Source: Candidatus Eiseniibacteriota bacterium (GTDB lineage Bacteria; Eisenbacteria; RBG-16-71-46; SZUA-252). Taken from it: a stretch of DNA of 64,000 nt. Shown in pieces: positions 18,341-58,334 of the stretch. The stretch is from positions 3,431 to 67,430 of the forward strand of contig JAYWED010000030.1 in assembly GCA_043779525.1 (NCBI GenBank), read 5' to 3'. The notes under the pieces were generated by a model. That model saw only the letters and a list, made by a program, of their open reading frames with translations. It did no database searches and was not told where the DNA came from. Each line of letters begins with the position of its first letter. Position 1 is the first letter of the stretch. The translations under genes were made by a program, and so were the position numbers.

Positions 18341-19128
18341 CAGAGGACCTTCGCCTCTTCGCGCAGGATCCGCACCAGCTCGTGCGCCGTGTCCTTGGGC
18401 TCTCCTTCGAGAATCCTGCCGGCCTGGCGGGGGGGCGGCAGCGAAAATCCCACGAAGCGGATCGAAGCAGCTCCCTCCGACACCGCACCCGGATCCACAC
18501 CGAGGTCGGACAGGGTCCACTCCGGAATGACCTTCTTCTTCACCGCCATGATGCCCTTGAGCGAGGCGTACCGCGGCTCGTTGAGACCCTTCTGCGCCGT
18601 GATCACGGCGGGAAGAGAAAATTCCACGGCCTCGGACCCGCCTTCGACTTCACGCTTCGCTTTGCCCTGTTTCGAAGCCGGATCGACCTCGAGACTCACG
18701 ACGACCGACACATGCGGCACGTCCAGCAGCTCGGCGAGGATGATCCCCGCCTGGGACCAATCGTGATCGACGCCCTGCTTTCCCGTGAGGATCAGGTCGA
18801 ACCCGGCCTTCTTCGCGGCCCCCGCGAGAACTGTCGCGACCGCGAGCGGATCCGACAGCGCGACACCCTCTCCCTTGATGTGAACTCCCTCGTCCGCGCC
18901 GAGCGAGAGGGCGTACTTGATGGCGTCCTTGACGCGGTCCGGGCCCAAGCTCAGGACCGTGACCTTGCCTTGACCGAGCCGCTCCTTGATTCGGAGCGCC
19001 TCCTCGATCGCGAACTCGTCGTAGGGGTTCGCGACCCACTTCACCCCCGACGTGTCCACGACTCCGTCCTTGAGCTGGATCCGGGTCTCGGTGTCGGGCA
19101 CCTGCTTTACGAATACCAGGATGTTCAT
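18340..19128 (-). CDS. etfB: electron transfer flavoprotein beta subunit
   Basis: From ATG 19128 (MNILVFVKQVPDTE...), typical EtfB. The stop overlaps the etfA start by 1 nt. Confidence 0.9.
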   Translation of the reverse strand: MNILVFVKQVPDTETRIQLKDGVVDTSGVKWVANPYDEFAIEEALRIKERLGQGKVTVLSLGPDRVKDAIKYALSLGADEGVHIKGEGVALSDPLAVATVLAGAAKKAGFDLILTGKQGVDHDWSQAGIILAELLDVPHVSVVVSLEVDPASKQGKAKREVEGGSEAVEFSLPAVITAQKGLNEPRYASLKGIMAVKKKVIPEWTLSDLGVDPGAVSEGAASIRFVGFSLPPPRQAGRILEGEPKDTAHELVRILREEAKVL

Positions 19129-19228
19129 TCGAAAGGTCTCTCCCTCATTTCGTCCACGGCAAGGGCGCGCAGTATAGTACGATGTCACCCGGCGATGGAA
19201 GAAGCGTTCCCGTGCGGAGAAACCCGAT

Positions 19229-33018: not shown

Positions 33019-34033
33019 GAGATCGCAGATGGACCGGGATCTCGAGGCTCTGCGAAAGACCAGCGCTCGAGACATACCGGAACTGGAATCCACCATCCAA
33101 ACCATTCGCCGGCGCGGGATCCAAGCGGACCCGTCGCTCTGGAACTTCAGGAGGAAGGTCATGGCTCTGCTTCATTCGGTTCGCACACGCCCCGCGGTCG
33201 CGGCGGCTCTCGTTGGAGCGCTCGCCGTGCTGGTCGCCATGGTTGTGCCGGTTTCATACGACCGCGTGACGGGACAGGACGTCGCGTTGACGGTTGCTGG
33301 AAAGGGAATTGGGAGGCAGGAAATCGCAGGGGTCGCTCAGGGTCTCAAGAGCGCTCTCGGCGTGAAGGGCGGCGTCATGGTAGAGGCGGTCTCGGAGGAT
33401 GCCGGCCCGCGTTTCGTGCTCCACACGACGCTGCCCAGGCGCTCGGGCGCCGACGTGCAGCGCGCCACGATGGGCTTCGCGCGGGATCTGGCCTCCAAGG
33501 GCTACGCGGCATCGGTCGAGGTGACGCCGCACCGGGAGCGCGTGCGGTACCCGGCCGTCGCCTACGCCTTCGACCAGATCATCAGCATCAGCGTCGATGG
33601 GAAATCCTCGGCCGCGCTGGAGCAGGAGATAAGGGACCGTCTCGCCGAGGCGGGAGTACCCGACGCGCAGGTCTCGGTGACCGACGCCCCTCAGGGAGGG
33701 CACGAGATCCGGATGACGGTGGAGCGCCAGGGAGACGCCTCGACCGTGCCCCCCGAGCCCATGCCCCAGGTGGTCCTCACGAAGGCTGGCGCTCCGCTCA
33801 CGGGCGGAGAAGGGCTGAGCGTCAAGGTGAAGAAGCTGAAGAGCGACGCGGGCATCTCACTGGTCGTGGAGGTGACGTCGAACGGGAAGACCGCCAAGGC
33901 GGAGGTGGCGAACTCCGATACGATGAGCGATGCCGCGCTCGCGGAGGCGATCTCCTCGCAGCTCAAGCAGCAGGGGATCGATGCCACGGTAACCGTGCTG
34001 GCCGGGAAGATCTCGATCGAGCCTGTGAAGTAG
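33011..34033 (+). CDS. putative single-pass anti-sigma factor with a ~250-aa extracytoplasmic domain
   Basis: 8-nt overlap with the sigma gene. About 60 aa cytoplasmic, then TM helix AVAAALVGALAVLVAMVV. No zinc-binding anti-sigma motif and no family recognised for the outer domain. Confidence 0.45.
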   Translation: MNERSQMDRDLEALRKTSARDIPELESTIQTIRRRGIQADPSLWNFRRKVMALLHSVRTRPAVAAALVGALAVLVAMVVPVSYDRVTGQDVALTVAGKGIGRQEIAGVAQGLKSALGVKGGVMVEAVSEDAGPRFVLHTTLPRRSGADVQRATMGFARDLASKGYAASVEVTPHRERVRYPAVAYAFDQIISISVDGKSSAALEQEIRDRLAEAGVPDAQVSVTDAPQGGHEIRMTVERQGDASTVPPEPMPQVVLTKAGAPLTGGEGLSVKVKKLKSDAGISLVVEVTSNGKTAKAEVANSDTMSDAALAEAISSQLKQQGIDATVTVLAGKISIEPVK

Positions 34034-34048
34034 CGCTCGCAGGGGCGA

Positions 34049-34100
34049 GCGGAGCGAAATCGCGGGCGGGGCGGCGAGTCGGCCGCTCCGCTTGTTTATC
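34049..34100 (+). terminator. possible terminator after the anti-sigma gene
   Basis: GCGGAGCG (34049-56) / CGCTCCGC (34084-91) enclose a structured GC-rich loop and are followed by TTGTTTAT. Confidence 0.35.
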
Positions 34101-34130
34101 CTCTCCATCCCGCGTAAACTCGCCGCTCCC

Positions 34131-35318
34131 ATGCTCAAAACATCCCCCTTCCATCCCAGGACCGCGCCTCTGGTGCGGACCCAGACGTGGCGCCGCTGGT
34201 CGGGATACCAGATGGCGAGCGCGTACGATCCGCATCCCGATCGCGAGTACGCCGCGATCCGGAGCGCGGCCGCGCTCATCGACATCTCGCCACTCTACAA
34301 GTACCGGATCGCGGGTCGCGATGCCTCACGGCTCCTCGACCGGATGATCACGCGGGACATGTCGAAGTTGAAGCCCGGGCAGGTCTACTACACACCCTGG
34401 TGCGACGGCGCCGGCAAGGTGGTCGACGATGGAACCGTGACGAACCTGGGCGGTGGAGCGTACCGCCTCACGAGCGCGGATTCCTCCCTGCGCTGGCTCC
34501 ACATGAACGCGGTCGGCATGGAGGTTTCGATCGAGGACATATCGGAGCGTGTCGGCGCGCTCTCGCTCCAGGGCCCGCTCTCCCGCGACATCCTCTCGCG
34601 GGCCGCCTCGGTCGATCTCTCCTCGCTCAAGTACTTCCGTATGATCGAGGGCGCGGTCCGGGGCATTCCGGTTGCCATTTCCCGCACGGGGTACACCGGC
34701 GATCTGGGGTACGAGATCTGGGTGGACGCCGCTCAGGCCGTGCCGCTCTGGGACGCGCTGATGGAAGAGGGGAAACCCTTCGGCCTGACGCCTACCGGTG
34801 TCTGGGCAATGGACATCGCGAGGATCGAGGCGGGGCTGATCATGCTGGACGTGGATTACTACTCGGCGCACCACGCGCTCATCGAGGCGCGCACGTCCAC
34901 GCCGCTGGAGATCAATCTCGGATGGGCGGTGAGCGCGGGGAAGGGACCCTTCAACGGCCGGCAGGCGCTTGCCGCGGAACGCGCGCGCGGCGCCGCGTGG
35001 GGCTTCGTGGGCCTCGAGGTGGATTGGGATTCCTTCGAGCGTCTCTTCCGCGCGCACGGACTGCCTCCACAGATTCCAAATATCGCGTGGCGCATGAGCG
35101 CACCCGTGTATCGTGAAGGTAAACAAATAGGTTACGCCACCAGCGGATGCTGGTCGCCGATCCTCAAGAAGTCCCTCGCGCTGGCGCACGTGCGCGCGCC
35201 GCACTTCGCGGCGGGCACCGCGGTGAAGCTCGAGGTGACGGTGGAGCATCGCCGCGAGGTCGCGGACGCGACGGTGCGGAAGCTTCCCTTCTTCGAGCCC
35301 GAGCGGAAGAAAGCATGA
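34131..35318 (+). CDS. GcvT-family aminomethyltransferase (folate-dependent C1 transferase)
   Basis: From ATG 34131 (MLKTSPFHPRT...). DISPLYKYRIAG, ISRTGYTGDLGYEIW and GLIMLDVDY are characteristic of the GcvT/DmdA family. Confidence 0.8.
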   Translation: MLKTSPFHPRTAPLVRTQTWRRWSGYQMASAYDPHPDREYAAIRSAAALIDISPLYKYRIAGRDASRLLDRMITRDMSKLKPGQVYYTPWCDGAGKVVDDGTVTNLGGGAYRLTSADSSLRWLHMNAVGMEVSIEDISERVGALSLQGPLSRDILSRAASVDLSSLKYFRMIEGAVRGIPVAISRTGYTGDLGYEIWVDAAQAVPLWDALMEEGKPFGLTPTGVWAMDIARIEAGLIMLDVDYYSAHHALIEARTSTPLEINLGWAVSAGKGPFNGRQALAAERARGAAWGFVGLEVDWDSFERLFRAHGLPPQIPNIAWRMSAPVYREGKQIGYATSGCWSPILKKSLALAHVRAPHFAAGTAVKLEVTVEHRREVADATVRKLPFFEPERKKA

Positions 35319-36901
35319 GCGCTGAGAAGCGTTACGACGCGATCGTGGTAGGCGGCGGGCACAACGGGCTCGTGGCCGCGGCCTATCTCGCGCGTGCGGG
35401 CCGGAAGACGCTGGTGCTCGAGCGCCGGCCGCTTCTCGGCGGCGCGGCCGTGACCGAGGAGGTGTTCCCGGGATTCAAGTTCTCGGTCTTCTCCTACGTC
35501 GTGAGTCTCCTCCGTCCGGAGATCATCCGGGACCTCGACTTGCCGAAGCACGGCCTCCAGATCCTGCCGTTCGAGAGCACGGTGACCCCGCTTAACAATG
35601 GCGACTACCTCGCGTCCTGGTCCGATCCCGACGAGACGCGCCGCGAGCTGTGCCGGCATTCCACGCGCGACGCCGACGCCTCGGCCGTGTTCGGGCGGCT
35701 CATGCATCACATGGCGATGGCGGTGAAACCCATCATCGGCATGGTGCCGCCGGACCCGACTTCGCTGTCGCTGGGCGATCTCGCGGGGCTCCTCAAACTG
35801 GGAGGGCATTTCCGCTCGCTCGGGCCGGAGCGGTTCCACGCGCTCCACAAGCTCATGACCATGAGCAGCGCGGACTATCTCGACGAGTGGTTCGAGTTCG
35901 ACGCCCTCAAGGCCACGAAATCGGCGAGCGGGATCATCGGCACGTTCCTGGGGCCGCGCTCGCCTGGGTCCGCCTACGTGCTCCTCCACCACTACATGGG
36001 CGAGATCGACGGGGCGTTCCGCGCCTGGGGATTCCAGAAGGGCGGCACCGGCGCCATCAGCGAGACCATCGCGAGCGCGGCTCGCGCCCACGGCGCCGAG
36101 CTCCGGACCGGCGCGGGGGTGGAGCGCGTGCTCGTGCGCGACGGCCGCGTGACCGGCGTGGCGCTCTCGACCGGCGAGGAGATCGCGGTCGGGCTCGTCA
36201 TCTCGGGCCTCGACCCGCGCCTCACCTTCACGCGCCTCGTGGACACCAAGGATCTTCCGGGTGATCTGGTCGAGGGCATCCGCCGCTACAAGTTCCGAGG
36301 CTCTTCGGGGAAGGTGAATCTCGCCCTCTCCGGCCTGCCCAGCTTCACCTGCATGCCGGGCGAGGGCCCGCACCTGCGCGGCGCGATGTCGATCAGCCCG
36401 AGCATCGAATATCTCGAGCGCGCGTACGACGACGCCAAGTACGGCGAGTTCTCCAAGAATCCGTACATGGACATCGTGATCCCCTCGATGATCGATCCAC
36501 AGATGGCGCCGCCGGGGAAACACGTCATGAGCATCTTCGTCCAGTACGCGCCCTATCACCTGAACGGCGGCTGGACCGACGCCAAGCGGGAGGCCTTCGG
36601 GGACGCGGTCGTGAATACGCTCGCCCGCTACGCGCCCAACATCAAGTCCCTGATCCTGCACCGGCAGGTGCTCACCCCCGACGACATCGAGCGGATCACC
36701 GGACTCTCCGAGGGGAACATCTTCCAGGGCGAGCTGGCGCTCCAGCAGCTCTTCTTCCTGCGCCCGGTGCCGGAGTGGGCCAAGTACCGCACACCCATCC
36801 ACGGCTACTGGCAGTGCGGCGCGGGGACCCATCCGGGTGGTGGGATCATGGGCGCCTCGGGAAGGCTCGCCGCGCTCGAGATCTTGAAGGCGGCCGCGTG
36901 A
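35315..36901 (+). CDS. FAD-dependent oxidoreductase, phytoene-desaturase-like (COG1233), paralog 1
   Basis: ATGA overlap with the upstream stop. YDAIVVGGGHNGLVAAAYLARAG dinucleotide fold and C-terminal GNIFQGEL...GAGTHPGGGIMG. Confidence 0.8.
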   Translation: MSAEKRYDAIVVGGGHNGLVAAAYLARAGRKTLVLERRPLLGGAAVTEEVFPGFKFSVFSYVVSLLRPEIIRDLDLPKHGLQILPFESTVTPLNNGDYLASWSDPDETRRELCRHSTRDADASAVFGRLMHHMAMAVKPIIGMVPPDPTSLSLGDLAGLLKLGGHFRSLGPERFHALHKLMTMSSADYLDEWFEFDALKATKSASGIIGTFLGPRSPGSAYVLLHHYMGEIDGAFRAWGFQKGGTGAISETIASAARAHGAELRTGAGVERVLVRDGRVTGVALSTGEEIAVGLVISGLDPRLTFTRLVDTKDLPGDLVEGIRRYKFRGSSGKVNLALSGLPSFTCMPGEGPHLRGAMSISPSIEYLERAYDDAKYGEFSKNPYMDIVIPSMIDPQMAPPGKHVMSIFVQYAPYHLNGGWTDAKREAFGDAVVNTLARYAPNIKSLILHRQVLTPDDIERITGLSEGNIFQGELALQQLFFLRPVPEWAKYRTPIHGYWQCGAGTHPGGGIMGASGRLAALEILKAAA

Positions 36902-38487
36902 GCGCGACGATCTACGACGCCATCGTCATCGGCGCGGGCGCCAACGGCCTCGTGGCCGCGGCGGGTCTCGCGCGCGCGGGCCAGCGCGTGCTCCTGCTGG
37001 AGCGCGACGCGGCGCTGGGGGGCCAGGGCCGCCTCGTCGAGTTCGCGCCCGGATTCCGCGCGGCGCCGCTGGGGCTGGATCCGGGCTGGCTGCCCGATTC
37101 CATCGCGACGGCCTTGGGGCTCACGGGACTGGCGCGCGCGACGACGGATGCCGGCGTCGCCGTCGTGACGGAGCCCGGCTTAGCACTCGCGCTCTCGCGC
37201 GACGCCGGTCGCGCCGCCGAGGCGATCGCGGTCCACTCGCGCGCCGATGCCGCGAAGTGGCCCGAGTTCACCGGGCGCATGAGAAAGCTCGCGGGATTCC
37301 TCGAGGCGCTTTACCAGACGCCGGCTCCAGACATCAGCGCGTCGTCCCTGAGCGAGCTAATCCCGCTCCTCGGCCTCGGAAAGAAATTCCGCGCGTTGGG
37401 CCGGCGCGACATGGTCGAGTTCCTGCGCACACTGCCCCTCTCGATATGGGAGCTTCTGGACGACTGGTTCGAGAGCGCGGCGTTGAAGGCCGCGGTCGCG
37501 CCGGGCGGCATCCAGGATCATCAGCAGGGGCCGCGCTCGGGCGGCACCGGCTTCGTGTTCCTGCACTATCTCGTCGGCGCCCCCGCGGGCGCCGTGCGCG
37601 GGCGCGCTCCGTGGCGGGACGGTCCGGAGGCCTTCACCCTCGCGGCCGAGGGCGCGGCCCGGCGGTTGGGCGTCACCATCCGCGCGGGCGCGACGGTGAA
37701 GCAGATCGCGGTCAAGGACGACGCGGTCGCGGGCGTGGTGCTGGAGGACGGCGAGGAGATCGTGGCGCGCGCGGTGCTATCGACCGCGAACCCGGCCCGC
37801 ACGCTTCTCGACTGGGTGGATCCGGTGTGGCTCGATCCCGAGTTCCTCCGCGAGGTCGGGAACATCCGCCATCGCGGGTGCGCCGCGGTGGTGGCGTATG
37901 CGCTGGAGCGGCTGCCCGACATCCCGGGGCTCCCGAGTGCCGACACGCTGGCGGGCATGATCTCGCTCACGCCCAGCATCCCCGCGCTCGAGAAGGCCGC
38001 CGATGCCGCCAAGTACGGCACGGTCTCGGAGCGCCCTCACGTGGAGTTCACGGTGCCCACGATCGTGGCGCCACAGCTGGCGACCAAGGGCCGGCACGTT
38101 CTCGTGGCGCGCGCGCAGTACGCGCCCTACCGGCTCCGCGAGGGCGCCGTCTGGGATGGCGCGCGCCGCGACGCGCTGGCGAAATCCGTGACCGCCGCGA
38201 TCGAGGCGGTCTCGCCATGCTTTTCCTCGCGAATCCTCCATCAGACGTCGTGGTCGCCGAGAGACCTCGAGGAGCAGTTCGGTCTACGCGAAGGGGCGGC
38301 GTCCCAGGGAGAGCTGGGGCTCGATCAGATTCTCTTCATGCGCCCGGTGGCCGGATGGGGAGGCCACACCACGCCGATCGCGGGCTTATACTTGGGGGGC
38401 GCGGGCAACCACCCCGGGCCCGGCGTTCTCGGCGGAGCGGGCTGGCTTGCCGCGCAGCGAATTCTCGGCGACCGCCGCCGCAAGTAG
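36898..38487 (+). CDS. FAD-dependent oxidoreductase, phytoene-desaturase-like (COG1233), paralog 2
   Basis: GTGA overlap with paralog 1. YDAIVIGAGANGLVAAAGLARAG and C-terminal SQGELGL...GAGNHPGPGVLG. Ends at TAG 38485-38487. Confidence 0.8.
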   Translation: MSATIYDAIVIGAGANGLVAAAGLARAGQRVLLLERDAALGGQGRLVEFAPGFRAAPLGLDPGWLPDSIATALGLTGLARATTDAGVAVVTEPGLALALSRDAGRAAEAIAVHSRADAAKWPEFTGRMRKLAGFLEALYQTPAPDISASSLSELIPLLGLGKKFRALGRRDMVEFLRTLPLSIWELLDDWFESAALKAAVAPGGIQDHQQGPRSGGTGFVFLHYLVGAPAGAVRGRAPWRDGPEAFTLAAEGAARRLGVTIRAGATVKQIAVKDDAVAGVVLEDGEEIVARAVLSTANPARTLLDWVDPVWLDPEFLREVGNIRHRGCAAVVAYALERLPDIPGLPSADTLAGMISLTPSIPALEKAADAAKYGTVSERPHVEFTVPTIVAPQLATKGRHVLVARAQYAPYRLREGAVWDGARRDALAKSVTAAIEAVSPCFSSRILHQTSWSPRDLEEQFGLREGAASQGELGLDQILFMRPVAGWGGHTTPIAGLYLGGAGNHPGPGVLGGAGWLAAQRILGDRRRK

Positions 38488-38496
38488 GGAAGGGCC

Positions 38497-39621
38497 ATCA
38501 CGACCTTTCACCGCACCACGACCAGCTACCAGCCGGGAGCGAGAACGCTTCCGCGCGAGCGCTACACTTCGGAGGCGATCCTGGCCGAGGAGCGCGAGCG
38601 CATCTTCGCGCGCGGGTGGAACTGCGTCGGCCGTGCCTCGGGGCTCGCGAATCCCGGCGATTTCATCACGCGCGAGATCGCCGGCGAATCGATCATCATC
38701 CTTCGCGACCGCGCGGAAGAGCTCCGCGCGTTCTTCAACGTCTGCCGCCACCGCGGCACGCGGCTCTGCCGCGAGGAGTCCGGGCGCTTCGGCGAGACCA
38801 TCCAGTGCTCCTACCACGCCTGGACCTACTCCATCGACGGCCGCCTCGTGGGCGCGCCCTCGATGCAGGAGGTCCCGGATTTCGACAAGGCGGATTATCC
38901 GCTCCACGAAGCCGGGCTCGCGGAGTGGGAGGGATTTCTCTTCGTCAACGTGGGGGAGAACCCGCCGCCGTTCGAGCAGGCATGGCGCCCGGTCCTGGAT
39001 CGATTCGCGCGGTACGACCTTCCGGGGCTTGCGGTGGGGCATCGCGTCGTCTACGACGTCCACGCCAACTGGAAGCTGGTGTTCCAGAATTACTCCGAGT
39101 GCCTTCATTGCCCCACGATCCATCCCAAGCTGGCGTCGGTGCTTCCGTACCAGAGCGGCGCGAACGATCTGACGGACGGGCCGTTCCTGGGCGGCTACAT
39201 GGAGATCAAGCCCCCGAACGAGAGCGCGACCATGAGCGGGCGCGCGTGCGGCAGGCTCGTGAGCGGCGCGCTGCCAGAGGAGGATCGGCACCGCGGGTTC
39301 TACTACACGCTGATGCCGAATCTGCTGCTGAGTCTCCACCCCGACTACGTGAACTACTACATGCTGACCCCGGTCGCCGTGGACCGGACGCTCGTCGAAT
39401 CCGAATGGCTCTTTCACCCCGACACGCTGGCGGATCCCAAGAACAACATCGCCGACGGGATCGAGTTCTGGGACCTCACGAACCGCCAGGACTGGGACAT
39501 CGTGGCGCAGAGCCAGCTCGGGATCGGCTCGCGCCGCTACGTCCCCGGCCCCTACTCGCCGCGCGAGAGCGTGCCCGCCGCGTGGGATCGGGAATATCTG
39601 AGGCTGATGGGGCGGGAGTGA
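38497..39621 (+). CDS. Rieske [2Fe-2S] non-haem-iron oxygenase alpha subunit (start non-canonical or unresolved)
   Basis: Same frame as the upstream gene. YTSEAILAEERERIFARGW, the Rieske motif CRHRG...CSYHAW (38743-38823) and the iron site NYSECLHCPTIHP. The first ATG/GTG/TTG in frame is GTG 38848, which lies after the Rieske ligands. ATC 38497 is the only near-cognate codon upstream of the conserved N-terminus. Confidence 0.7.
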   Translation: MTTFHRTTTSYQPGARTLPRERYTSEAILAEERERIFARGWNCVGRASGLANPGDFITREIAGESIIILRDRAEELRAFFNVCRHRGTRLCREESGRFGETIQCSYHAWTYSIDGRLVGAPSMQEVPDFDKADYPLHEAGLAEWEGFLFVNVGENPPPFEQAWRPVLDRFARYDLPGLAVGHRVVYDVHANWKLVFQNYSECLHCPTIHPKLASVLPYQSGANDLTDGPFLGGYMEIKPPNESATMSGRACGRLVSGALPEEDRHRGFYYTLMPNLLLSLHPDYVNYYMLTPVAVDRTLVESEWLFHPDTLADPKNNIADGIEFWDLTNRQDWDIVAQSQLGIGSRRYVPGPYSPRESVPAAWDREYLRLMGRE

Positions 39622-39718
39622 GGCGCCGGGGGTCGGCCCGGTTCCGGGGCTTCTTGACCTCGCCTCGCCGAAAGCGGACGATCAAGGGAAGCAGCATGAG
39701 TCCCTGTTCACGAACCTC

Positions 39719-40234
39719 ATGAGGATCGCAATGAACCGATATGCCGGAATGAAGCCCGCTCCAGCCAGCCGCCGCTCTCTCTTGCTGGCGTTTCTGATCG
39801 CCGCGTCGGCGGTCTCACTCGTTTCCTGCTCGCGCTCGAAGACCGTGCCCGAGAGCCAAACCACGACGGACTCCACTACCACGGTGACGCGAACGCGCAC
39901 GGTTCGGGTCAGCCACATCGATCTCGGACGCGGCCTCTCGTCGGATCGCAGAGTCGTCACGACGGACCAGCCGTTCACGCCGGGGGACACGGTCTACGCG
40001 GCAGTGGTCCTGACCGGCCCGGTTCCCGCGTCCCAGGTGACGGCGCGCTGGACGGCAGCCGACGGCGCGGTCGTCGCGGAAGAGACCCAGGCGGTGGCGG
40101 CAAGTGACGCCGAAGAGGTGGTGCAGTTTCACATGGCGAAGCCGGCGGGTCTGCCACCGGGCGAGTACCGGGTGGACGTTCTTGTCGACGGCCAGGTGGT
40201 GAGCACGAAGAACTTCATGATCGCGGCGCCCTAG
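39719..40234 (+). CDS. hypothetical lipoprotein
   Basis: Lipobox LVSC after a hydrophobic stretch, a Thr-rich linker and a ~100-aa C-terminal beta-rich domain. No family recognised. Confidence 0.55.
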   Translation: MRIAMNRYAGMKPAPASRRSLLLAFLIAASAVSLVSCSRSKTVPESQTTTDSTTTVTRTRTVRVSHIDLGRGLSSDRRVVTTDQPFTPGDTVYAAVVLTGPVPASQVTARWTAADGAVVAEETQAVAASDAEEVVQFHMAKPAGLPPGEYRVDVLVDGQVVSTKNFMIAAP

Positions 40235-40254
40235 AGCGGAGAGCGCGGAGGCTC

Positions 40255-41565
40255 CTACGGACCTCCCTGGAGCCTTCGCGCGACGTCGCGGCCGAAATCC
40301 ACCGCCTGGGCGAATTCGCGGGACTCGCGCATCCACTGCGCGGTCCAGGTGCTCGCGCTCATCGTCCCGTTGCTGCGCCGCAGCCACTCGCGCCATCCGA
40401 GCGGGCAACCCACGCCGGTCAACGGGATGTCGTCGGCCACGAACCCTTCCATGTCCCCTTCGCGCACCAGGAGCCGGGGCCCCATCCAGATTCTTCGCTC
40501 GCTGGGCGGCGCGGGGTCCAGCCCGTACCAGGTGAGCGTTCCCAGGTAGCGCATGCGGTCTTCGCGCGCAACCGGAGTCGCTCCAGCAGCCCAGTGGCCG
40601 CGCCGGTCGAGGAGGCTGGCCCAGCCCTCGATCGCGCGGAAGTCGCCGCTCGTAAGATCGCAGGTATCCTGGGCCGCGCGGCGAACGGATTCCGCGAACG
40701 CGAGCATCGTGCGCGCATCGCGTTCCCGTCCGATCGAGTCCAGCCGCGCCGCTTCCTGAGGGATGAACCGGTCGCTGTCGCTCAGCGCGAGCCGGAAGAA
40801 GTTCGCGTAGACCCGCTGCATGCCGCGGACCGAGGCGAACCGGTCCGCGTCGCTCTCTCGCGCCATGATCACCGGTTCGAGCAGGACGCGGCGCCAGGCC
40901 TCGCGCGCGATCATGTGGCCGATCCCCGGGATGGCGAGCACGTGCTGTTGCACCGCAGGGTTGGCGAGAGAGGTGGTCCAGGTCGCCGCTCGATAGCCCA
41001 CCGAATATCCCGAGAGCGTTCCGAGGATGGCGCTCACGGCATTGACCGGTTTCACGAAGTCCAGGGTCGTGCGGTACAGCTCGTCGAACTGGTCGGGGAG
41101 CAGGGCGTGCGCGGAGGAATCGGGAAGCTCGAGCCAGAAGCCTCGATCCACGTGGCCGCGGATCTTCAGCGCGCCATAACGCGTTCCGCTGATCGAGCGC
41201 CCGTAGTCGTGCCCGCGAAGCGGCGGCAGGAACCGGTGCGTGTCGATATCGTACTGGCTGAATGTCCTGCCGCGCGCCGAGAGCTCGACGACGAAGCGCG
41301 CCGTGGTGTCGGAGGGCGACTCCCGGTACGACAGGACGCTCAGGTTCTCGAAAAGCTCCTCGAAGGGGATTGCCGTGGAATCGCGAATCGAGTGCTTGCC
41401 CGCCCAGAAGCCGAACGCCGCCAGGGCGAGCAGGATCATGAGGAGCTTGCTGCGAAGCAAGTATCTGGCGACCGGCACCGCGTGCTTGACGACATGGGCG
41501 CCGAGACTTTTCTTCTTACCCAAGTTGGCTCCGTGTCGTTGAATGCGGGCTCGCGTCGCTTGCAC
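40255..41565 (-). CDS. hypothetical membrane-anchored protein (436 aa)
   Basis: Basic N-terminus followed by TM helix LLMILLALAAFGFWA. The remainder has no recognisable motif. Coding-like composition. The start could lie further downstream. Confidence 0.5.
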   Translation of the reverse strand: MQATRARIQRHGANLGKKKSLGAHVVKHAVPVARYLLRSKLLMILLALAAFGFWAGKHSIRDSTAIPFEELFENLSVLSYRESPSDTTARFVVELSARGRTFSQYDIDTHRFLPPLRGHDYGRSISGTRYGALKIRGHVDRGFWLELPDSSAHALLPDQFDELYRTTLDFVKPVNAVSAILGTLSGYSVGYRAATWTTSLANPAVQQHVLAIPGIGHMIAREAWRRVLLEPVIMARESDADRFASVRGMQRVYANFFRLALSDSDRFIPQEAARLDSIGRERDARTMLAFAESVRRAAQDTCDLTSGDFRAIEGWASLLDRRGHWAAGATPVAREDRMRYLGTLTWYGLDPAPPSERRIWMGPRLLVREGDMEGFVADDIPLTGVGCPLGWREWLRRSNGTMSASTWTAQWMRESREFAQAVDFGRDVARRLQGGP

Positions 41566-41685: not shown

Positions 41686-42597
41686 CTACGGGCTCGTCTC
41701 TCCGTAGAGCCTGCGTGCTGCCATCAGATGCCGCATCGCGTCGTCGCGCCGCCCTCGAGCCTCCAGGAGGAGGCCCAGGTTGTAGTGGGCATCGGCGCCG
41801 CCGTCAGGGTCGCGAGCGATCGCCTGCGTGTAGGCCTGGATCGCCTCGTCGGGGCGCCCGCGGTCCTCGAGCAGCACCGCGAGATTGAAGTGCGCGGTTG
41901 CGTCCCCGGGGTCGCATTGCACGGCCCGCTGGTATTCCGCTTCTGCCTTTCCCAGCTCGCCGGCCTCGTGGTAGAGCCTGCCCAGGTTCAGGTGCGCGTC
42001 GGCGAGACCCGGGTCCGCGGTGATCGCCTGCATGTAGGCCTGACGCGCTTCCAGGGGCGAGGTCTCTTCCAGCTCGCTCGCCAGCTCGAACCAATGCTCG
42101 GCCGAGGGCGCGGTGGCTTCACCGACCGAGGTCGGCGCGGAGATTTCCGCGCCCGGCTCTCTCGCGGAGCGTGAGCCGATCACCGTCAGCGTTGTGGGAA
42201 TCTCGGCGCGCCCGGCGATCTCCCCGGCGTTGAAATCCAGGAGGAACTGACCGGAGTCGGGCTGCCAGGAAGCGTTCTCGTCCCACGCGACCGCGCGCGC
42301 TCCGTCCGCCAGGATCCTGACGCTGGTCAACGGAAGATCGGCGGCGAGCTGGCGGCGCAGGGAGGACCAGACGCGCTTGACGCGGCGCGCGGGAATCCCG
42401 GCCTCGAGCAGGCCGCGGGTCGTGCGGAGGAGCAGGAGCTGCTGGAAGGTGAATTCGGAGTGCCCGCCGGGGCCCGGCTCCGCGAGGAGCCCGCCGAGGC
42501 GCGCCCAGTTCCGCACGCTGGCCTCGGTGGCCTGGAGAATTCGTGCCGCGTCGCTCGTGGAGAAATGCTTCGTCGCGTCCATGCCCACAATGTCCAT
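41686..42597 (-). CDS. MerR/excisionase-type HTH protein with C-terminal TPR repeats
   Basis: From ATG 42597. FSTSDAARILQATEASVRNWARLG is the HTH. There are three or four TPR-like repeats (AHLNLGRLYHEAGELGKAEAEYQRAV..., AHFNLAVLLED..., AHYNLGLLLEA...). Lies 17 nt downstream of ku. Confidence 0.65.
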   Translation of the reverse strand: MDIVGMDATKHFSTSDAARILQATEASVRNWARLGGLLAEPGPGGHSEFTFQQLLLLRTTRGLLEAGIPARRVKRVWSSLRRQLAADLPLTSVRILADGARAVAWDENASWQPDSGQFLLDFNAGEIAGRAEIPTTLTVIGSRSAREPGAEISAPTSVGEATAPSAEHWFELASELEETSPLEARQAYMQAITADPGLADAHLNLGRLYHEAGELGKAEAEYQRAVQCDPGDATAHFNLAVLLEDRGRPDEAIQAYTQAIARDPDGGADAHYNLGLLLEARGRRDDAMRHLMAARRLYGETSP

Positions 42598-42614
42598 TCC
42601 CACCCACTCCCCTG

Positions 42615-43478
42615 CTATCGCGACGCTCTCTTCTTCTCCTTCGCCGGCTGCGCCGCGCGACTCGCTTTGGCTGCGGGCTTCTTCGCGGCGGTCCGGCCAT
42701 CCTTGACCCTGCTCTCGAGGCTCTGTTTCAGCGCGTCCATGAGGTCGATGACCTGCGTACGCTGGACTTGCTCGCCGACGGATGTGATCTCCTTGCCTTC
42801 GACCTTCGCCTCCACCACCGAGAGGAGCCGATCGCGGTACTCGTCGTGGTACTGGGCGGGTTTGAATTCCTTGCTCGATAGCTCCTCGATCAGACGCAAG
42901 GCCAGGTCCAGCTCTCCCGGCTTGACCGCGGCGTCCTGGCCCTTGTCGATCTCGCCGAAATCCCGGACCTCGTCGGTGAAATACATCGTGTGCAGCATGA
43001 GGCCGTCCTGGCTCGCGCGGATCAGGACCAGGTTTTCCTTGCCGCGCATGACGTACTTCGCCAGCGCGACGCGGTCCGTCTTGGCCATGGCGTCGCAGAG
43101 CAGCCGGTACGCCTTGTCTCCGCCCTTGTCGGGGCCGAGATAATAGGTCTTCTCGAAGTAGATGGGATCCACCTGATCGAGCGGAACGAACTCCGCGATG
43201 TCGATCATCCGGGAGGCCTCGGTCTCGAGCTTCTTCAGCTCCTCCTCGGTGAAGCGCACGTATTGTTCCTTCGCGAACTCGTACCCCTTGACCAGGGACG
43301 CGCGCTCCAGCACTTCGTTGCAGGCGGGGCAGATCTGCTGCTGCTTGATCCGACCGCCGCATTTCTCGTGGAGCAGATTGAAGGACAGGCCCGCCGAGGA
43401 GGCGGCCGTGAACATCTTGACCGGTATCGAGACCAGCCCGAACGAGAGGGTGCCTGATCCGATCGAATGTGGGGGCAT
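42615..43478 (-). CDS. ku: Ku protein (NHEJ)
   Basis: GTLSFGLVSIPVKMF and IDIAEFVPLDQVDPIYFEKTYYLGP, with a basic Lys/Ala tail. The second ATG (43478) has a GGAGGAA SD; the track start 43493 has none. Confidence 0.9.
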   Translation of the reverse strand: MPPHSIGSGTLSFGLVSIPVKMFTAASSAGLSFNLLHEKCGGRIKQQQICPACNEVLERASLVKGYEFAKEQYVRFTEEELKKLETEASRMIDIAEFVPLDQVDPIYFEKTYYLGPDKGGDKAYRLLCDAMAKTDRVALAKYVMRGKENLVLIRASQDGLMLHTMYFTDEVRDFGEIDKGQDAAVKPGELDLALRLIEELSSKEFKPAQYHDEYRDRLLSVVEAKVEGKEITSVGEQVQRTQVIDLMDALKQSLESRVKDGRTAAKKPAAKASRAAQPAKEKKRASR

Positions 43479-43523
43479 CTTGGTTTCCTCCATGGAGACT
43501 GCCGCGAGGCTAACACCATGCTT

Positions 43524-43610: not shown

Positions 43611-46238
43611 GTGAGCACTACCCGGAAACCCCAGCTCGAACCATACCGCCGGAAGCGGGATCCCGCCCGCACCCCGGAGCCCTTCGGGGGCGTAGCGCCA
43701 CCCGCAGACCGCCCCGTGCCCGGAGCCCCTCCCCGGTTCGTGGTCCAGAAGCACTGGGCGCGCAACATGCATTACGACCTCCGTCTCGAGCTGGACGGCA
43801 CGCTCAAGAGCTGGGCGGTCCCCAAGGGGCCATCCACGCGGGTGGAGGAGAAGCGGCTGGCGGTCCACGTGGAGGATCATCCGCTCGAATACGGCGGCTT
43901 CGAGGGCGTGATCCCGTCGGGCAATTACGGGGCCGGATCGGTGATCGTGTGGGACCGGGGCTGGTTTCGCTCCTTCAAGCCTGAGGATCCGCTCGAGCAG
44001 TACGAGCGGGGCAAGCTGGAGCTGGAGCTGTTCGGGTTCAAGCTGCGCGGCCGGTGGACGCTCGTCCGCATGGGGAAGAAGGAGAAGGAGTGGCTCCTCC
44101 TCAAGAAGGCGGACGGAGCCGCGACCCTGGTCGAGGCGATCGACCGCTATCCGGAATCGGTCGTCACGGGGCTCACGGTCGAGGAGATGCGCGATGTGCC
44201 GGGCATGCTCGCCGCGCTGCGCGAGCGGATCGTGTCGCTGGAGGCGCCCAGGGGCGCTCTCTCCTGGCGCGACATCCCGCTCACGCTCGCCACGCTCGCG
44301 GAGCGTCCGCCGTCGGGGCCGGACTGGTGCTTCGAGATCAAGTACGACGGGGTGCGCGTGATTGCCGTGCGCGACGGCGAGGACATCCGCCTCGTCGGAC
44401 GGAGCGGGGAGGAGATCACGAAGCGCTATCCCGAGATCGCGTCCGCGCTGCGGAGCCTTCCCACGCCGCGCTTCGCGCTCGATGGCGAGATCATCGCCGA
44501 GGACGAGAGCGGGCGGCCCAGCTTCCAGAGACTCCAGGCACGGATGGGCCTCAAGCGGCCGCGCGACGTGGAGGCCATGATGGCGCGCGTGCCGGTGCGC
44601 GGGGCCTTCTTCGACTGCCTCGGACTCGAGGGCCATGATCTCCGGACGCTGGCGCTGGTGGACCGCAAGGAGCTTCTCGCCCGCGTCGCGCCCCCGCTCG
44701 GGACCGTGCAGCGCTGCGACCACGTGCTCGAGCATGGCGAGGCCTTCTTCGAGGCGGCGTCGGAGATGGGGCTGGAGGGGATCGTGGCGAAGCGGCTGAA
44801 GAGCCGCTACACGGGCCGCCGCTCGCAGGATTGGATCAAGGTGAAGTGTGACCATCGGCAGGAGTTCGTGATCGGCGGCTACACCGAGCCACAGGGCTCC
44901 CGCGCCCGATTCGGGGCGCTCCACGTAGGGCTCTACGAGGGCGCGAAGCTCGTCTACGTGACTAAGGTCGGCACCGGTTTCGATGGGGATGCCCTCGACA
45001 GCATCGCGCGGGCCCTCCAGCCTCTCCCGCGCGCGAAATCACCGTTCGACGTCGGGAGCCCCGCCGGTCGTGGAAACCGCTGGGTGGAGCCGCGCCTGGT
45101 CTGCGAGGTCCGCTTCACGGAATGGACCCGCGAAGGGGGGCTCCGGCACCCTACCTTCCTCGGAATGCGCGCCGACAAGCGCCCCAAGGATTGCCGCCGC
45201 GAGGAGCCGGTCTCGATCGAGGCGAGCGCGCAAGAGGGCGCCGCGCCTGGCGCCGAGGACGCCGCGCCCGCCGACGCGCGCGCCAAGGCTCCGCATTCCT
45301 CCGCGCGGCCCGACGTTCGTCTGACGAACGTGAAGAAGGTCTTCTGGCCCGAGGGCTACACGAAGGGCGATCTGATCCGGTACTACGAGTCGGTGGCGCC
45401 CTTGCTCCTGCCTTATCTTCGCGACCGCCCCGTGGTGCTCACGCGCTACCCGGACGGCATCACCGGAAAATCCTTCTTCCAGAAGGACGCGCCCGTGTAC
45501 GTGCCCGACTGGCTTCGGACCGAGACCGTGCACTCAAGCGACGGCGAGCGCGACATCCGCTACTTCGTGATCGAGGATACGGAATCGCTCCGCTACATCG
45601 CCAACCTCGGCACCATCCCCATCCACGTCTGGAGCGCGCGGGTCAACACGCTCGAGCATCCCGACTGGCTCGTATTGGATCTGGATCCAAAGGAGGCGCC
45701 CTTCACGCACGTGGTGCAGGTGGCGCGTGCGCTGAAGACCATCCTCGACGAGGTGGCCCTGCCCAGCTACATCAAGACCTCCGGAGCGACCGGGTTGCAC
45801 GTCCTGATCCCGATGGGGCGGAGATACAGCCACGAGGAGACCCGCACGTTTGCTCGCCTGCTCGCGATGCTGACGGTCGAGTCGGTGCCCGAGATCTCGA
45901 CCGTGACCCGCTCGATCAAGGGGCGCGGCGGAAAGGTCTACGTGGACTTCAGGCAGAACGGGCGCGGGAACACCATCGTGGGCCCTTACTCGGTGCGTCC
46001 TCTCCCCGGGGCGCCGGCTTCATGCCCGCTGCGCTGGGACGAGGTGACGGCGCGGCTGAATCCGGCGAGGTTCACGATCCAGACGATCCCGGAGCGGTTC
46101 GAGAGCATGCCCGACCCGATGACAGACGTGCTCGGGCCGGGCGTGGACATGGGCTCGGCGATCGCGGCCATCGGGCGGCGCCTGGATCCCGGCTCGGGCG
46201 GGAAAGGCTCCGGCCGGAAAGGCGGCGCCAGGAAATGA
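43611..46238 (+). CDS. ligD: multidomain ATP-dependent DNA ligase LigD (phosphoesterase-ligase-polymerase)
   Basis: 875 aa. PE domain (FVVQKHWARNMHYDLRLE), ligase motif I EIKYDGVR, and a C-terminal primase-polymerase domain (YPDGITGKSFFQK, SGATGLHVLIP). Confidence 0.92.
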   Translation: MSTTRKPQLEPYRRKRDPARTPEPFGGVAPPADRPVPGAPPRFVVQKHWARNMHYDLRLELDGTLKSWAVPKGPSTRVEEKRLAVHVEDHPLEYGGFEGVIPSGNYGAGSVIVWDRGWFRSFKPEDPLEQYERGKLELELFGFKLRGRWTLVRMGKKEKEWLLLKKADGAATLVEAIDRYPESVVTGLTVEEMRDVPGMLAALRERIVSLEAPRGALSWRDIPLTLATLAERPPSGPDWCFEIKYDGVRVIAVRDGEDIRLVGRSGEEITKRYPEIASALRSLPTPRFALDGEIIAEDESGRPSFQRLQARMGLKRPRDVEAMMARVPVRGAFFDCLGLEGHDLRTLALVDRKELLARVAPPLGTVQRCDHVLEHGEAFFEAASEMGLEGIVAKRLKSRYTGRRSQDWIKVKCDHRQEFVIGGYTEPQGSRARFGALHVGLYEGAKLVYVTKVGTGFDGDALDSIARALQPLPRAKSPFDVGSPAGRGNRWVEPRLVCEVRFTEWTREGGLRHPTFLGMRADKRPKDCRREEPVSIEASAQEGAAPGAEDAAPADARAKAPHSSARPDVRLTNVKKVFWPEGYTKGDLIRYYESVAPLLLPYLRDRPVVLTRYPDGITGKSFFQKDAPVYVPDWLRTETVHSSDGERDIRYFVIEDTESLRYIANLGTIPIHVWSARVNTLEHPDWLVLDLDPKEAPFTHVVQVARALKTILDEVALPSYIKTSGATGLHVLIPMGRRYSHEETRTFARLLAMLTVESVPEISTVTRSIKGRGGKVYVDFRQNGRGNTIVGPYSVRPLPGAPASCPLRWDEVTARLNPARFTIQTIPERFESMPDPMTDVLGPGVDMGSAIAAIGRRLDPGSGGKGSGRKGGARK

Positions 46239-58264: not shown

Positions 58265-58334
58265 CGAACGCAGGACAGTGAAGGGGGGCGGGACCCTCCG
58301 ACATCTCGGCATACTGAACGCCTCCCGTTCCGAG

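Follow-up and report, generated by a model that had tools for sequence, protein, structure and literature searches.

Four same-strand genes at positions 34131–39621 of the window (the whole 64,000-nucleotide stretch of DNA that was analyzed) are likely to form one operon that oxidatively N-demethylates an amino-acid-like amine (a betaine or an N-methyl amino acid) and passes the methyl carbon to tetrahydrofolate (THF). The genes encode a GcvT-family protein (P1), two flavoproteins (P2 and P3) and a Rieske oxygenase (P4). A sequence-only reading of this DNA had suggested that it encodes a route for demethylation or C1 salvage, acting on a methylated amine or a methoxylated compound. This suggestion is supported by the synteny of the genes and by the non-carotenoid character of the flavoproteins. 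The amine branch is favored over the methoxy branch, because P1 is nearer to the C-domain of trimethylamine N-oxide (TMAO) demethylase (Tdm) and to GcvT than to LigM and DesA, and P4 is nearer to Stc2, CntA and GbcA than to VanA. The identification of P2 as a PYROXD2-family protein is new here and was not seen in the earlier reading; it is the main added value of the analysis. No published description of the operon was found.

Organization of the gene cluster

The features of the cluster are as follows.

34131–35318, + strand: P1, stand-alone GcvT-family tetrahydrofolate-binding protein, 395 aa (Pfam, NCBIfam and PDB matches)
35315–36901, + strand: P2, PYROXD2-family FAD flavoprotein, 528 aa (full-length similarity to oyster PYROXD2)
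36898–38487, + strand: P3, diverged paralog of P2, 529 aa, GTG start (38% identity to P2)
38488–38493, + strand: GGAAGG, hexamer resembling a Shine-Dalgarno sequence, after the P3 stop and before the P4 start (read from the sequence)
38497–39621, + strand: P4, Rieske non-haem-iron oxygenase alpha subunit, 374 aa, Stc2/CntA/GbcA type (Pfam, NCBIfam and PDB matches, ligand motifs)

The stop codon of P1 overlaps the start of P2 in the sequence ATGA (35315–35318), and the stop codon of P2 overlaps the GTG start of P3 in the sequence GTGA (36898–36901). The P3 frame ends in a single TAG (38485–38487) and P4 ends in a TGA (39619–39621). A base-by-base check placed both overlaps and the single TAG exactly where the sequence-only reading had put them, and Pfam and NCBIfam profile searches agreed with its domain identities for the four genes. 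The two flavoproteins, whose mutual similarity was also claimed there, are 38% identical across 521 residues (E 1e-99). The close spacing seen in the window is not accidental: in other genomes, 33 complete quartets have intergenic gaps estimated mostly at −13 to +30 nt.

Conservation of the gene cluster

The order P1–P2–P3–P4 on the same strand is kept in 30 of the 39 informative genome loci, defined as those with at least 5.5 kb of sequence upstream of the Rieske gene. Among the shorter, partial loci, a flavoprotein gene adjoins the Rieske gene in 27 of 32. The Rieske gene stands alone in 14/71 informative loci. Eisenbacteria, Gemmatimonadota, Limnocylindrales, Dormiibacterota and other groups carry the quartet loci. 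Locus L081 holds a far more divergent version, whose Rieske, GcvT, P2-like and P3-like proteins are 38%, 41%, 51% and 33% identical, respectively.

No carotenoid, reductase, ferredoxin, transporter or regulator gene is conserved beside the quartets. In the absence of a conserved transporter or regulator, these loci give no direct clue to the substrate. Pfam scanning of 44 ORFs of the window detected no reductase or ferredoxin; the regions 4938–6073, 15416–18340 and 58264–60329 were outside the scan. Within these limits, the earlier claim that the window holds no ferredoxin or reductase partner for the Rieske protein stands. Two outcomes had been named in advance as refuting, namely a lack of synteny in other genomes and the placement of the flavoproteins in carotenoid clades. 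Neither occurred: the counts given above speak for synteny, the flavoproteins score below the CrtO and crtI_fam cut-offs, and no carotenoid genes were found in 160 related loci.

The GcvT-family protein P1

P1 matches the Pfam domains GCV_T (212 bits) and GCV_T_C (52 bits). Its top NCBIfam match is the C-terminal half of Tdm (263 bits), and it remains under the cut-off of every GcvT equivalog model, with a GcvT score of 220 bits. The DmdA, LigM and DesA models give 129, 50 and 45 bits, respectively. In the PDB, P1 matches the Tdm C-domain best (9q5a, 172 bits), followed by GcvT (1yx2, 161 bits). P1 also aligns with the GcvT domains of the amine-oxidizing enzymes dimethylglycine oxidase (1pj5, 108 bits), dimethylglycine dehydrogenase (5l46, 104 bits) and SoxA (1vrq, 98 bits). 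The folate-site DD motif and the GYE motif are retained. An alternative start codon, TTG at 34092, is present; the alignments of relatives begin at the ATG. We propose that P1 captures a one-carbon unit, in the form of formaldehyde or an iminium.

Of Tdm, P1 resembles only the C-terminal domain, its closest match; the catalytic N-terminal half has no counterpart. DmmD offers a precedent: it is a separate GcvT protein, its gene is the first of a demethylase operon, and its presumed task is the conjugation of formaldehyde to THF (PMC5520151). P1 occupies the equivalent operon position and the same role is proposed for it, without a sequence comparison of the two proteins. The quartet differs from the DmmDABC and Tdm systems in its catalytic partners, which are PYROXD2-like flavoproteins and a Rieske protein instead of DmmABC.

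The flavoproteins P2 and P3

P2 shares 45% identity with oyster PYROXD2 over its full length (456 bits; 43% by BLASTP), and both proteins carry an N-terminal GxGxxG and a C-terminal HPGGG motif. Orthologs of P2 from Eisenbacteria bear the name PYROXD2 in UniRef. Judged by sequence similarity, P2 is a member of the PYROXD2 family. Animal PYROXD2, which is mitochondrial, differs from P2 in that it carries a targeting extension and is encoded by one gene outside any operon. P2 is the best-conserved gene of the cluster, with 75–95% identity across the quartet loci. Its AF2 model (pLDDT 95.3) adopts a fold shared with CrtD, CrtI and flavin amine oxidases. Among solved structures, the carotenoid C–C desaturase CrtD (4rep, TM 0.78) is closest and amine oxidases follow, so the fold leaves the chemistry of P2 undecided; identity to solved structures does not exceed 18%. 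Both P2 and P3 contain the Pfam domains Amino_oxidase and NAD_binding_8, and match CrtO-like only below the cut-off. We propose that P2 is a catalytic N-methyl amine dehydrogenase or oxidase. In the literature searched, no assay of any PYROXD2-family enzyme, including the animal proteins, was found, and C–N bond oxidation by the flavoproteins is therefore inferred from their context.

P3 is 32% identical to oyster PYROXD2 and is the least conserved member of the quartet (48–86% across loci). Its orthologs carry substitutions at positions that do not vary among P2, PYROXD2 and the other GcvT-linked homologs, namely L65W, W238R, G243/G246, D394W, N468A and G509P. With several family-invariant residues lost, P3 fits less well into a scheme of one enzyme for each methyl group. 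By inference, P3 is either a second demethylase or a partner subunit that is non-catalytic or altered.

The Rieske oxygenase P4

P4 contains the Pfam domains Rieske (66 bits) and Ring_hydroxyl_A (138 bits). Among NCBIfam models GbcA scores highest (205 bits, cut-off 670), and the top PDB matches of P4 are 3n0q, Stc2 (3vca) and CntA (6y8j), at 155–170 bits. P4 has C83/H85/C104/H107 as Rieske ligands, H204/H209/D332 as iron ligands and, within the motif ECxHCxxxHP, the bridging E201; none of these positions varies in 26 homologs. This iron motif is common to Stc2 and CntA, and D332 aligns with D360 of Stc2. By these matches, P4 resembles Stc2, CntA and GbcA rather than VanA: the Rieske CxH...CxxH motif, ECxHCxxxHP, the glutamate at the bridging position and the aspartate serving as third ligand all align. 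P4 differs from these enzymes in being about 35–60 residues shorter and in a C-terminal half that aligns weakly (41–51 bits). Also unlike the GbcA, CntA and Stc2 systems, the quartet has no GbcB-, CntB- or Stc3/4-like reductase encoded nearby, and the electron donor of P4 can only be inferred.

The P4 frame of the window has no ATG, GTG or TTG between the TAG and position 38848. Homologs of P4 are 374 aa long and begin with MTTFHRTT, which aligns with the ATC at 38497, the site at which 20 relatives have ATG or GTG. The relative in L002 has an identical GGAAGG upstream of its P4 ATG. Without a canonical start, P4 of the window may be poorly expressed or newly inactivated.

Association of PYROXD2-like genes with one-carbon metabolism

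In a second bacterial clade with a single flavoprotein, a GcvT gene lies directly upstream in 68 of 69 loci (58/59 with at least 1300 nt of upstream sequence and 10/10 partial ones). The neighboring genes encode BetI-type TetR regulators, polar-amino-acid ABC transporters (SBP_bac_3) and peptidases, which indicates an amino-acid-like substrate. In L083 and L084, PurU, FAD1, FAD2 and GcvT genes occur together; purU also accompanies sox operons, to which the L083 module is alike in this respect. A formate–THF ligase gene is found directly downstream of the PYROXD2-like gene in L127 and L128. In at least 21 protist clusters, Perkinsus and transcriptome sequences among them, PYROXD2-like proteins are preceded in the same polypeptide by a GFA domain (glutathione-dependent formaldehyde-activating enzyme). 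What GFA domains do catalytically is itself a matter of debate. GcvT genes are missing from four of nine informative contexts (L085, L087, L088 and L089) of P2-like homologs that are 38–70% identical to P2. The PYROXD2 family pairs recurrently, and in independent ways, with genes for one-carbon capture or one-carbon–THF metabolism.

In humans, the share of plasma variance that PYROXD2 variants account for is about 50% for N6-methyllysine, 48% for N6,N6-dimethyllysine and 21% for N-methylpipecolate (PMC8109053). Lower PYROXD2 expression is associated with higher urinary trimethylamine and plasma dimethylamine (PMC3169529). This human evidence for N-methyl amines is genetic association only.

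Proposed pathway and alternative explanations

In the proposed pathway, P4 would act as a Rieske monooxygenase and hydroxylate a methyl group on a quaternary nitrogen, releasing formaldehyde and a tertiary amine. P2 would oxidize the N-methyl C–N bond of the tertiary amine, of the secondary amine or of both to an iminium, and P3 would do likewise or partner P2. P1 would then trap the iminium or formaldehyde carbon as 5,10-methylene-THF, in analogy to the GcvT domains of dimethylglycine and sarcosine dehydrogenases and Tdm and to the separate DmmD protein. This division of labor among P4, P2 and P3 is inferred, as are the substrate and the electron acceptor of the flavoproteins. Similar chemistry is known from dimethylglycine dehydrogenase/oxidase, sarcosine dehydrogenase and the heterotetrameric sarcosine oxidase SoxABDG, in which a flavoprotein oxidizes the N-methyl C–N bond and a GcvT-type domain moves the carbon to THF. 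In these enzymes the GcvT domain shares a polypeptide, or forms a tight complex, with a flavin domain of the DAO family, whereas the quartet encodes PYROXD2/CrtI-like flavoproteins as separate polypeptides, in a paralogous pair and with a Rieske oxygenase in the operon.

The methyl group might instead come from sulfur or oxygen. A sulfonium compound resembling DMSP, demethylated by GcvT-family proteins and the oxygenase while the flavoproteins act on the thioether or carbon-chain product, is brought to mind by an additional GcvT-family gene, which immediately precedes the Rieske gene in some Gemmatimonadales loci (L059, L052) and lies about 2.6 kb downstream in L035. This extra gene reaches 384–388 bits on the DMSP demethylase DmdA model, just below its 410-bit cut-off. 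P1 of the window reaches only 129 bits there against 263 on the Tdm C-domain, the closest relatives of P4 are N-demethylating or C–N-cleaving enzymes, and the PYROXD2-linked metabolites are all N-methyl compounds; moreover, the operon is carried by soil bacteria, whereas DMSP is mainly marine. We regard a sulfonium substrate as improbable. The soil habitat of the hosts would suit O-demethylation of methoxylated, lignin-derived aromatics, the second option of the earlier reading, with P1 transferring methyl groups to THF in the manner of LigM and DesA, P4 acting as a VanA-like enzyme and the flavoproteins processing the ring product; O-demethylases do occur among both GcvT-family and Rieske enzymes. 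The weak LigM and DesA scores of P1 (50 and 45 bits against 263 for the Tdm C-domain and 220 for GcvT), the top matches of P4 to GbcA, Stc2 and CntA instead of VanA, the lack of ring-cleavage or aromatic-catabolism genes in 160 related loci, and the amino-acid transporters, peptidases and BetI-type regulators near the second-clade genes leave little room for this possibility.

P2 and P3 could also be mainly a new kind of reductase for the Rieske oxygenase, with P1 only clearing the formaldehyde made by P4. An FNR-type reductase or ferredoxin gene was neither found in the scanned part of the window nor conserved beside the quartets, and the close spacing of the genes would permit translational coupling. 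A redox role of this kind is nonetheless improbable, as GcvT and P2-like genes form a module without any Rieske gene in 68/69 second-clade loci and in L083, no Rieske partner domain accompanies the PYROXD2 proteins of protists and animals, some loci have the Rieske gene on its own, and the fold has no separate reductase-type NAD(P)H-binding domain. Least credible is that the flavoproteins are true CrtO/CrtI-type C–C desaturases or ketolases acting on an isoprenoid or lipid, in a GcvT and Rieske neighborhood without functional meaning. They share the overall fold of CrtO, CrtI and CrtD and a weak full-length profile similarity, CrtO being the top NCBIfam match and CrtD the top structural one. 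Their CrtO scores of 303 and 155 bits are far from the cut-off of 1000, and crtI_fam gives 100 against 238; carotenoid and isoprenoid genes are absent nearby in every locus, and the one-carbon linkage is instead conserved across several phyla and extends to a eukaryotic domain fusion.

Folate-coupled oxidative N-demethylation remains the preferred explanation of the quartet. Human PYROXD2 is a mitochondrial disease gene of unknown function. Since P2 is a close bacterial relative of this protein, the operon suggests a testable function for PYROXD2.

Organization of the operon

The four genes are located on the forward strand and are referred to below as the quartet:

34131–35318 (+): P1, GcvT-family protein, 395 aa; Pfam GCV_T and GCV_T_C
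35315–36901 (+): P2, FAD flavoprotein, 528 aa; Pfam Amino_oxidase/NAD_binding_8
36898–38487 (+): P3, FAD flavoprotein, 529 aa, GTG start; Pfam Amino_oxidase/NAD_binding_8
38497 (ATC)–39621 (+): P4, Rieske oxygenase; Pfam Rieske and Ring_hydroxyl_A

The ATGA (35315–35318) and GTGA (36898–36901) overlaps and the TAG at 38485–38487 are found in the sequence exactly where the sequence-only reading placed them. The Pfam matches agree with its assignment of P1 to the GcvT type and of P4 to the Rieske oxygenases. The two flavoproteins, which it described as mutually similar, are full-length paralogs (38% identity, E 1e-99). The GC content of the window is about 67%.

The P4 start was left unresolved by the sequence-only reading. 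The P4 frame contains no ATG, GTG or TTG codon from the TAG up to position 38848, which is already past the Rieske cluster motifs. The homologs of P4 are 374 aa long with the N-terminus MTTFHRTT. The window reads ATC ACG ACC TTT CAC at 38497, and an ATG or GTG is present at or beside the aligned position in all 20 relatives examined. From the lack of a canonical codon before 38848, the N-termini of the homologs and the aligned codons of the relatives, the start of P4 is inferred to be the ATC at 38497. This codon lies 9 nt past the P3 stop, just 3′ of a GGAAGG hexamer, and the closest relative has a similar GGAAGG. The ATC may be a rare non-canonical start aided by re-initiation, a very recent loss of the start codon, or a base-call error. 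The remainder of P4 is intact, and its nearest relative is 92% identical. Read-through of the TAG or a P3–P4 fusion was rejected: all 120 P4 homologs listed are separate proteins of 357–383 aa, mostly 373–376 aa, and the relatives' own ATG or GTG downstream of the stop also contradicts a fusion. The scan of 33800–39900 returned no promoter and two terminator-like sites, which equals the chance expectation, and no glycine or THF riboswitch was found by an Rfam scan of 31–41 kb.

Conservation of the quartet and its surroundings

Scanning with the Rieske alignment, limited to one genome per species, gave 80 loci from 588 confirmed matches. The majority belong to Candidatus Eisenbacteria (up to 93% identical, which makes this phylum the probable source of the window) and Gemmatimonadota; minor carriers are Limnocylindrales, Dormiibacterota, Acidobacteria, Acidimicrobiia and Gammaproteobacteria. 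Where 5.5 kb or more precedes the Rieske gene (39 loci), P1, P2 and P3 are found in unchanged order and orientation in 30 loci. A flavoprotein gene adjoins the Rieske gene in 27 of the 32 loci with 0.7–5.5 kb upstream, and a solitary Rieske gene is found in 14 loci of these two sets. The sequence-only reading was to be regarded as refuted if the four genes were not syntenic elsewhere; the conserved order in 30 of 39 informative loci shows that this is not the case. The intergenic gaps within the quartets are estimated to be mostly −13 to +30 nt. Identity across the loci is highest for P2 (75–95%) and lowest for P3 (48–86%).

When the neighbours of the 80 quartet-type loci were clustered, with antisense shadow ORFs inside the four genes excluded, no further ORF family was present in more than nine loci. 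The recurring neighbours checked encode an M24 peptidase, FKBP, a cupredoxin-like protein, a fatty-acid desaturase, NlpC/P60, a CAAX protease, CitMHS, a Na/H exchanger and YchF. These are unrelated housekeeping genes, and their recurrence reflects local synteny, not function.

The neighbours of the quartet in the window are likewise unrelated and not kept with it elsewhere, and they were rejected as operon partners. Upstream lie SerC/SerA/SerB-like genes, PurA and an ECF sigma factor with a putative anti-sigma factor; Ku and LigD lie downstream. Further features of the region are:

520–15416: acyl-CoA dehydrogenase, thiolase, methylmalonyl-CoA mutase and carboxylase genes, near the ETF gene
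18343–19188 (−): ETF domain gene, with unscanned ORFs just below it (region 16200–19188, −)
19229–21130 (+): single ORF with homocysteine S-methyltransferase and methylenetetrahydrofolate reductase domains
39719–41565: two ORFs directly downstream of the operon, 171 aa (+) and 436 aa (−)
41689–43362 (−): long MerR and TPR ORF, overlapping Ku in a different frame
42618–43493 (−): Ku
43611–46235 (+): full-length LigD, facing Ku as a non-homologous end-joining pair

The two ORFs at 39719–41565 have no Pfam match; they show coding-like GC3 and are kept only in the closest relatives. The true start of the MerR/TPR ORF is probably further downstream, since the ORF overlaps Ku in another frame. The ORF at 19229–21130, a YitJ-like fusion, belongs to folate and one-carbon metabolism; it lies upstream of the operon at a distance of 13 kb, and other loci show no linkage between the two. 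ETF is the acceptor of the mitochondrial dimethylglycine and sarcosine dehydrogenases. The ETF genes of the window (about 16–19 kb) were set aside as an electron acceptor for the quartet, given their distance of 15 kb, their position next to acyl-CoA dehydrogenase genes and their lack of linkage to the quartet elsewhere.

P1 and P4

P1 scores 212 bits on GCV_T and 52 bits on GCV_T_C. In an alignment with the T. maritima T protein it keeps the folate-site DD and GYE motifs, which align with D96 and E195 of that protein; the position of R227 is occupied by Met in P1 and by Ala in the TMAO demethylase Tdm. P1 misses all of the GcvT equivalog cut-offs (166 vs 236, 220 vs 300 and 143 vs 459 bits), and neither the window nor the related loci contain GcvH or GcvP genes. 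P1 is thus a member of the GcvT superfamily and not a glycine-cleavage T protein. It matches best the C-terminal half of Tdm, which traps formaldehyde (263 bits with the NCBIfam model, 172 bits with PDB 9q5a). Since the match is confined to positions 386–760 of the 763-position profile, P1 corresponds to the Tdm C-domain alone; the N-terminal catalytic half is absent, and P1 does not qualify as a Tdm. The matches to LigM and DesA are weak (50 and 45 bits).

The P4 residues C83, H85, C104, H107, E201, H204, H209 and D332 recur unchanged in all of 26 homologs. According to the alignment, P4 shares the Rieske and iron ligands and the ECxHCxxxHP motif with Stc2, CntA and 3n0q, and D332 aligns with the Stc2 aspartate. 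P4 does not reach the GbcA equivalog level, which would imply the same substrate; with 205 bits against a cut-off of 670, it is placed in a distinct subfamily within the quaternary-amine oxygenase group. The dedicated reductase gene that would be expected alongside an oxygenase of the GbcA, Stc2 and CntA type does not accompany P4 among the window ORFs scanned. The earlier observation that the window holds no reductase or ferredoxin partner is borne out, as none of the 44 window ORFs scanned carries an FNR-type or ferredoxin domain. Nor did the clustering around the 80 quartet-type loci bring up a reductase, ferredoxin, transporter, regulator or carotenoid gene that is conserved there.

P2 as a PYROXD2-family flavoprotein

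An exhaustive HMMER search of 1.84 billion representatives yielded 2930 relatives of P2 at E up to 1e-30. The 120 best P2 matches listed are all at least 86% identical, and the Eisenbacteria orthologs carry the UniRef label PYROXD2. Full-length matches at 42–45% include two proteins named PYROXD2 by the source databases, from oyster (XP_011443058) and the mayfly Cloeon, and a choanoflagellate homolog without a name. The oyster protein matches P2 residues 5–524 with 456 bits and 45% identity; its identity to P3 is 32%. In the reverse BLASTP from oyster PYROXD2, the window P2 is among the closest bacterial relatives (43%). By sequence similarity P2 belongs to the PYROXD2 family, and no characterised family comes as close. 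The FAD Rossmann motif GGGHNGL (residues 11–19) and the C-terminal THPGGG (505–510, within a G-x-G-T-H-P-G-G-G motif) occupy columns that are invariant or nearly so among 83 aligned family members. At several positions where P2, PYROXD2 and other GcvT-linked homologs share an invariant residue, P3 orthologs have a different one (L65W, W238R, G243/G246, D394W, N468A in the GGNIF motif, and G509P).

The AlphaFold model of P2 is of high confidence, with a pLDDT of 95.3. In the fold search carotenoid desaturases came first (4rep, TM 0.78), followed by nicotine oxidoreductase, monoamine oxidases and putrescine oxidase, with identities of no more than 18% for all matches. No PYROXD2-family structure has been solved. 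Because the fold is common to carotenoid desaturases and amine oxidases, it leaves undecided whether the chemistry is C–C or C–N oxidation.

One-carbon partners of PYROXD2-like genes

Loci of more distant homologs in several cases link PYROXD2-like genes to one-carbon functions. L081 is a divergent full quartet in which an IclR-type HTH domain is fused to GcvT; the protein (L081:6433-8004, 523 aa) has an N-terminal IclR/Rrf2-type helix-turn-helix, and in it a regulator may be joined to a folate-binding or ligand-sensing domain. In L082 (Nocardioides caldifontis) GcvT overlaps a single P2-like gene, and an Opp-type transporter and an S9 peptidase adjoin. L083 and L084 contain an AraC-family regulator, PurU (formyl-THF deformylase), two paralogous flavoproteins and GcvT. 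A P2-like/P3-like pair (L090:917-3415) adjoins a convergent DDAH/ADI-family gene. Dimethylarginine dimethylaminohydrolase (DDAH) releases dimethylamine, so this neighbour is a weak hint of a methylated arginine or dimethylamine substrate. The P2-like gene occurs without GcvT in L085, L087, L088 and L089.

A metagenome scan with the Nocardioides protein as seed returned 80 loci of a second clade, in which a single flavoprotein gene follows GcvT without a Rieske gene. Among the 59 loci that extend 1300 nt or more upstream, 58 have GcvT as the immediately preceding gene, and the 10 loci whose upstream region is partial all have it too. A divergent BetI-type TetR regulator accompanies the pair in 14 loci, a polar-amino-acid ABC transporter (SBP_bac_3, permease and ATPase) is nearby in several arrangements, and M14 or S9 peptidases repeatedly flank the pair. 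In two loci, L127 and L128, formate-THF ligase is directly downstream.

Many protists have PYROXD2-like proteins (P0445-P0482, P0542) with a fused N-terminal GFA domain (PF04828), seen in at least 21 clusters. The carriers include Perkinsus olseni and MMETSP/EukProt transcripts, and one locus encodes GFA and the PYROXD2-like protein in a single ORF (L171:1437-3887). GFA is the glutathione-dependent formaldehyde-activating enzyme. The attachment of two unrelated carbon-capture devices is hard to explain unless the flavoprotein family releases formaldehyde-level carbon.

Human PYROXD2

Human PYROXD2 is a mitochondrial disease gene (PMC8777681). The missense variant rs2147896 explains about 50% of the plasma variance of N6-methyllysine, 48% of that of N6,N6-dimethyllysine and 21% of that of N-methylpipecolate (PMC8109053), and PYROXD2 ranks with the strongest known loci for metabolites. 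When PYROXD2 expression is lower, urinary trimethylamine and plasma dimethylamine are higher (PMC3169529). No enzymology or defined activity of PYROXD2 was found in the literature searched, and the titles and abstracts of the best-ranked PYROXD2 papers since 2022 report none. An 'epsilon-alkyllysinase' demethylating N-methyl-lysine was described from rat kidney in 1963–64 and later equated with LSD1 by its discoverers (PMC3936616). Searches for the gene combination (COG1233 with Rieske; aminomethyltransferase with phytoene dehydrogenase and betaine, sarcosine or Rieske) gave nothing relevant, and no description of the quartet system was found in the searchable literature, which does not cover subscription journals.

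Proposed role of the quartet

The quartet most likely performs folate-coupled N-demethylation, using flavoproteins of an uncharacterised family to which a human disease gene also belongs. The demethylation or C1-salvage route suggested by the sequence-only reading is thereby supported and takes a sharper form. Folate-coupled N-demethylation is already known with DAO-type flavoproteins; the quartet would use a PYROXD2-family flavoprotein instead. In the proposed scheme, modelled on the conversion of glycine betaine through dimethylglycine and sarcosine to glycine, P4 would demethylate a quaternary ammonium group. P2 would oxidise the remaining N-methyl groups, with P3 as a further demethylase or an altered partner, and P1 would pass the carbon to THF. 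We propose the last role by analogy with DmmD, which is thought to transfer carbon to THF for dimethylamine monooxygenase (PMC5520151). By inference, one oxygenase and two flavoproteins fit three methyl groups; without the Rieske gene, two flavoproteins would suit a dimethyl and one flavoprotein a monomethyl substrate. The replacement of family-invariant residues in the P3 orthologs weakens this assignment of one enzyme per methyl group. Clues to the substrate come from the amino-acid transporters, peptidases and BetI-type regulator and from the human metabolites; they suggest N-methylated amino acids or the corresponding betaines, such as methylated lysines, glycine betaine or proline betaine.

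Other roles have to be considered. The profile scores and the gene contexts speak against a carotenoid-type role for the flavoproteins. P2 and P3 reach 303 and 155 bits on the CrtO model (cut-off 1000) and 100 and 70 bits on crtI_fam (cut-off 238), P2 matches CrtI in the PDB with 46 bits, and no carotenoid biosynthesis neighbours were present among the clustered ORFs of the 80 + 80 loci. Placement of the flavoproteins in carotenoid desaturase clades with carotenoid genes nearby would have refuted the sequence-only reading, and this did not occur. Profile scores and gene contexts also disfavour O-demethylation of aromatics. Conservation of the module in the absence of a Rieske gene argues against P2 and P3 serving purely as a reductase. 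Demethylation of a sulfonium substrate is suggested by a near-threshold DmdA-like gene beside the Rieske gene in some Gemmatimonadales. DmdA is the DMSP demethylase. Extra GcvT-family genes of some Gemmatimonadales and Longimicrobiales score 384–388 bits on the DmdA model, below the cut-off of 410; they lie directly upstream of the Rieske gene (L059:8838-9983, L052:1311-2456) or about 2.6 kb downstream of it (L035:3704-5026). A DmdA-like gene in soil bacteria is unexpected.

Beyond the quartet, we raise, only tentatively, a wider hypothesis. The PYROXD2 family may form a hitherto unrecognised class of demethylases for N-methyl amines, paired with an acceptor of the one-carbon unit, namely THF via GcvT in bacteria and glutathione via the fused GFA domain in protists, and P2/P3 of the quartet may also hand the amine electrons straight to P4. 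Since a reductase gene is consistently missing, the flavoproteins as electron donor of P4 are possible, but this is unsupported. If P2 and P3 do feed P4, a trimethylammonium compound would be fully demethylated without a separate reductase. If the hypothesis holds for the family, human PYROXD2 would clear free N6-methyl- and dimethyl-lysine and related N-methyl amines, and it would be a candidate for the rat-kidney 'epsilon-alkyllysinase' activity (PMC3936616). The operon offers a concrete and cheap test of PYROXD2-family function. It is abundant in soil metagenomes, in Eisenbacteria and Gemmatimonadota, and may therefore represent a sizeable, unrecognised soil sink for methylated nitrogen compounds.
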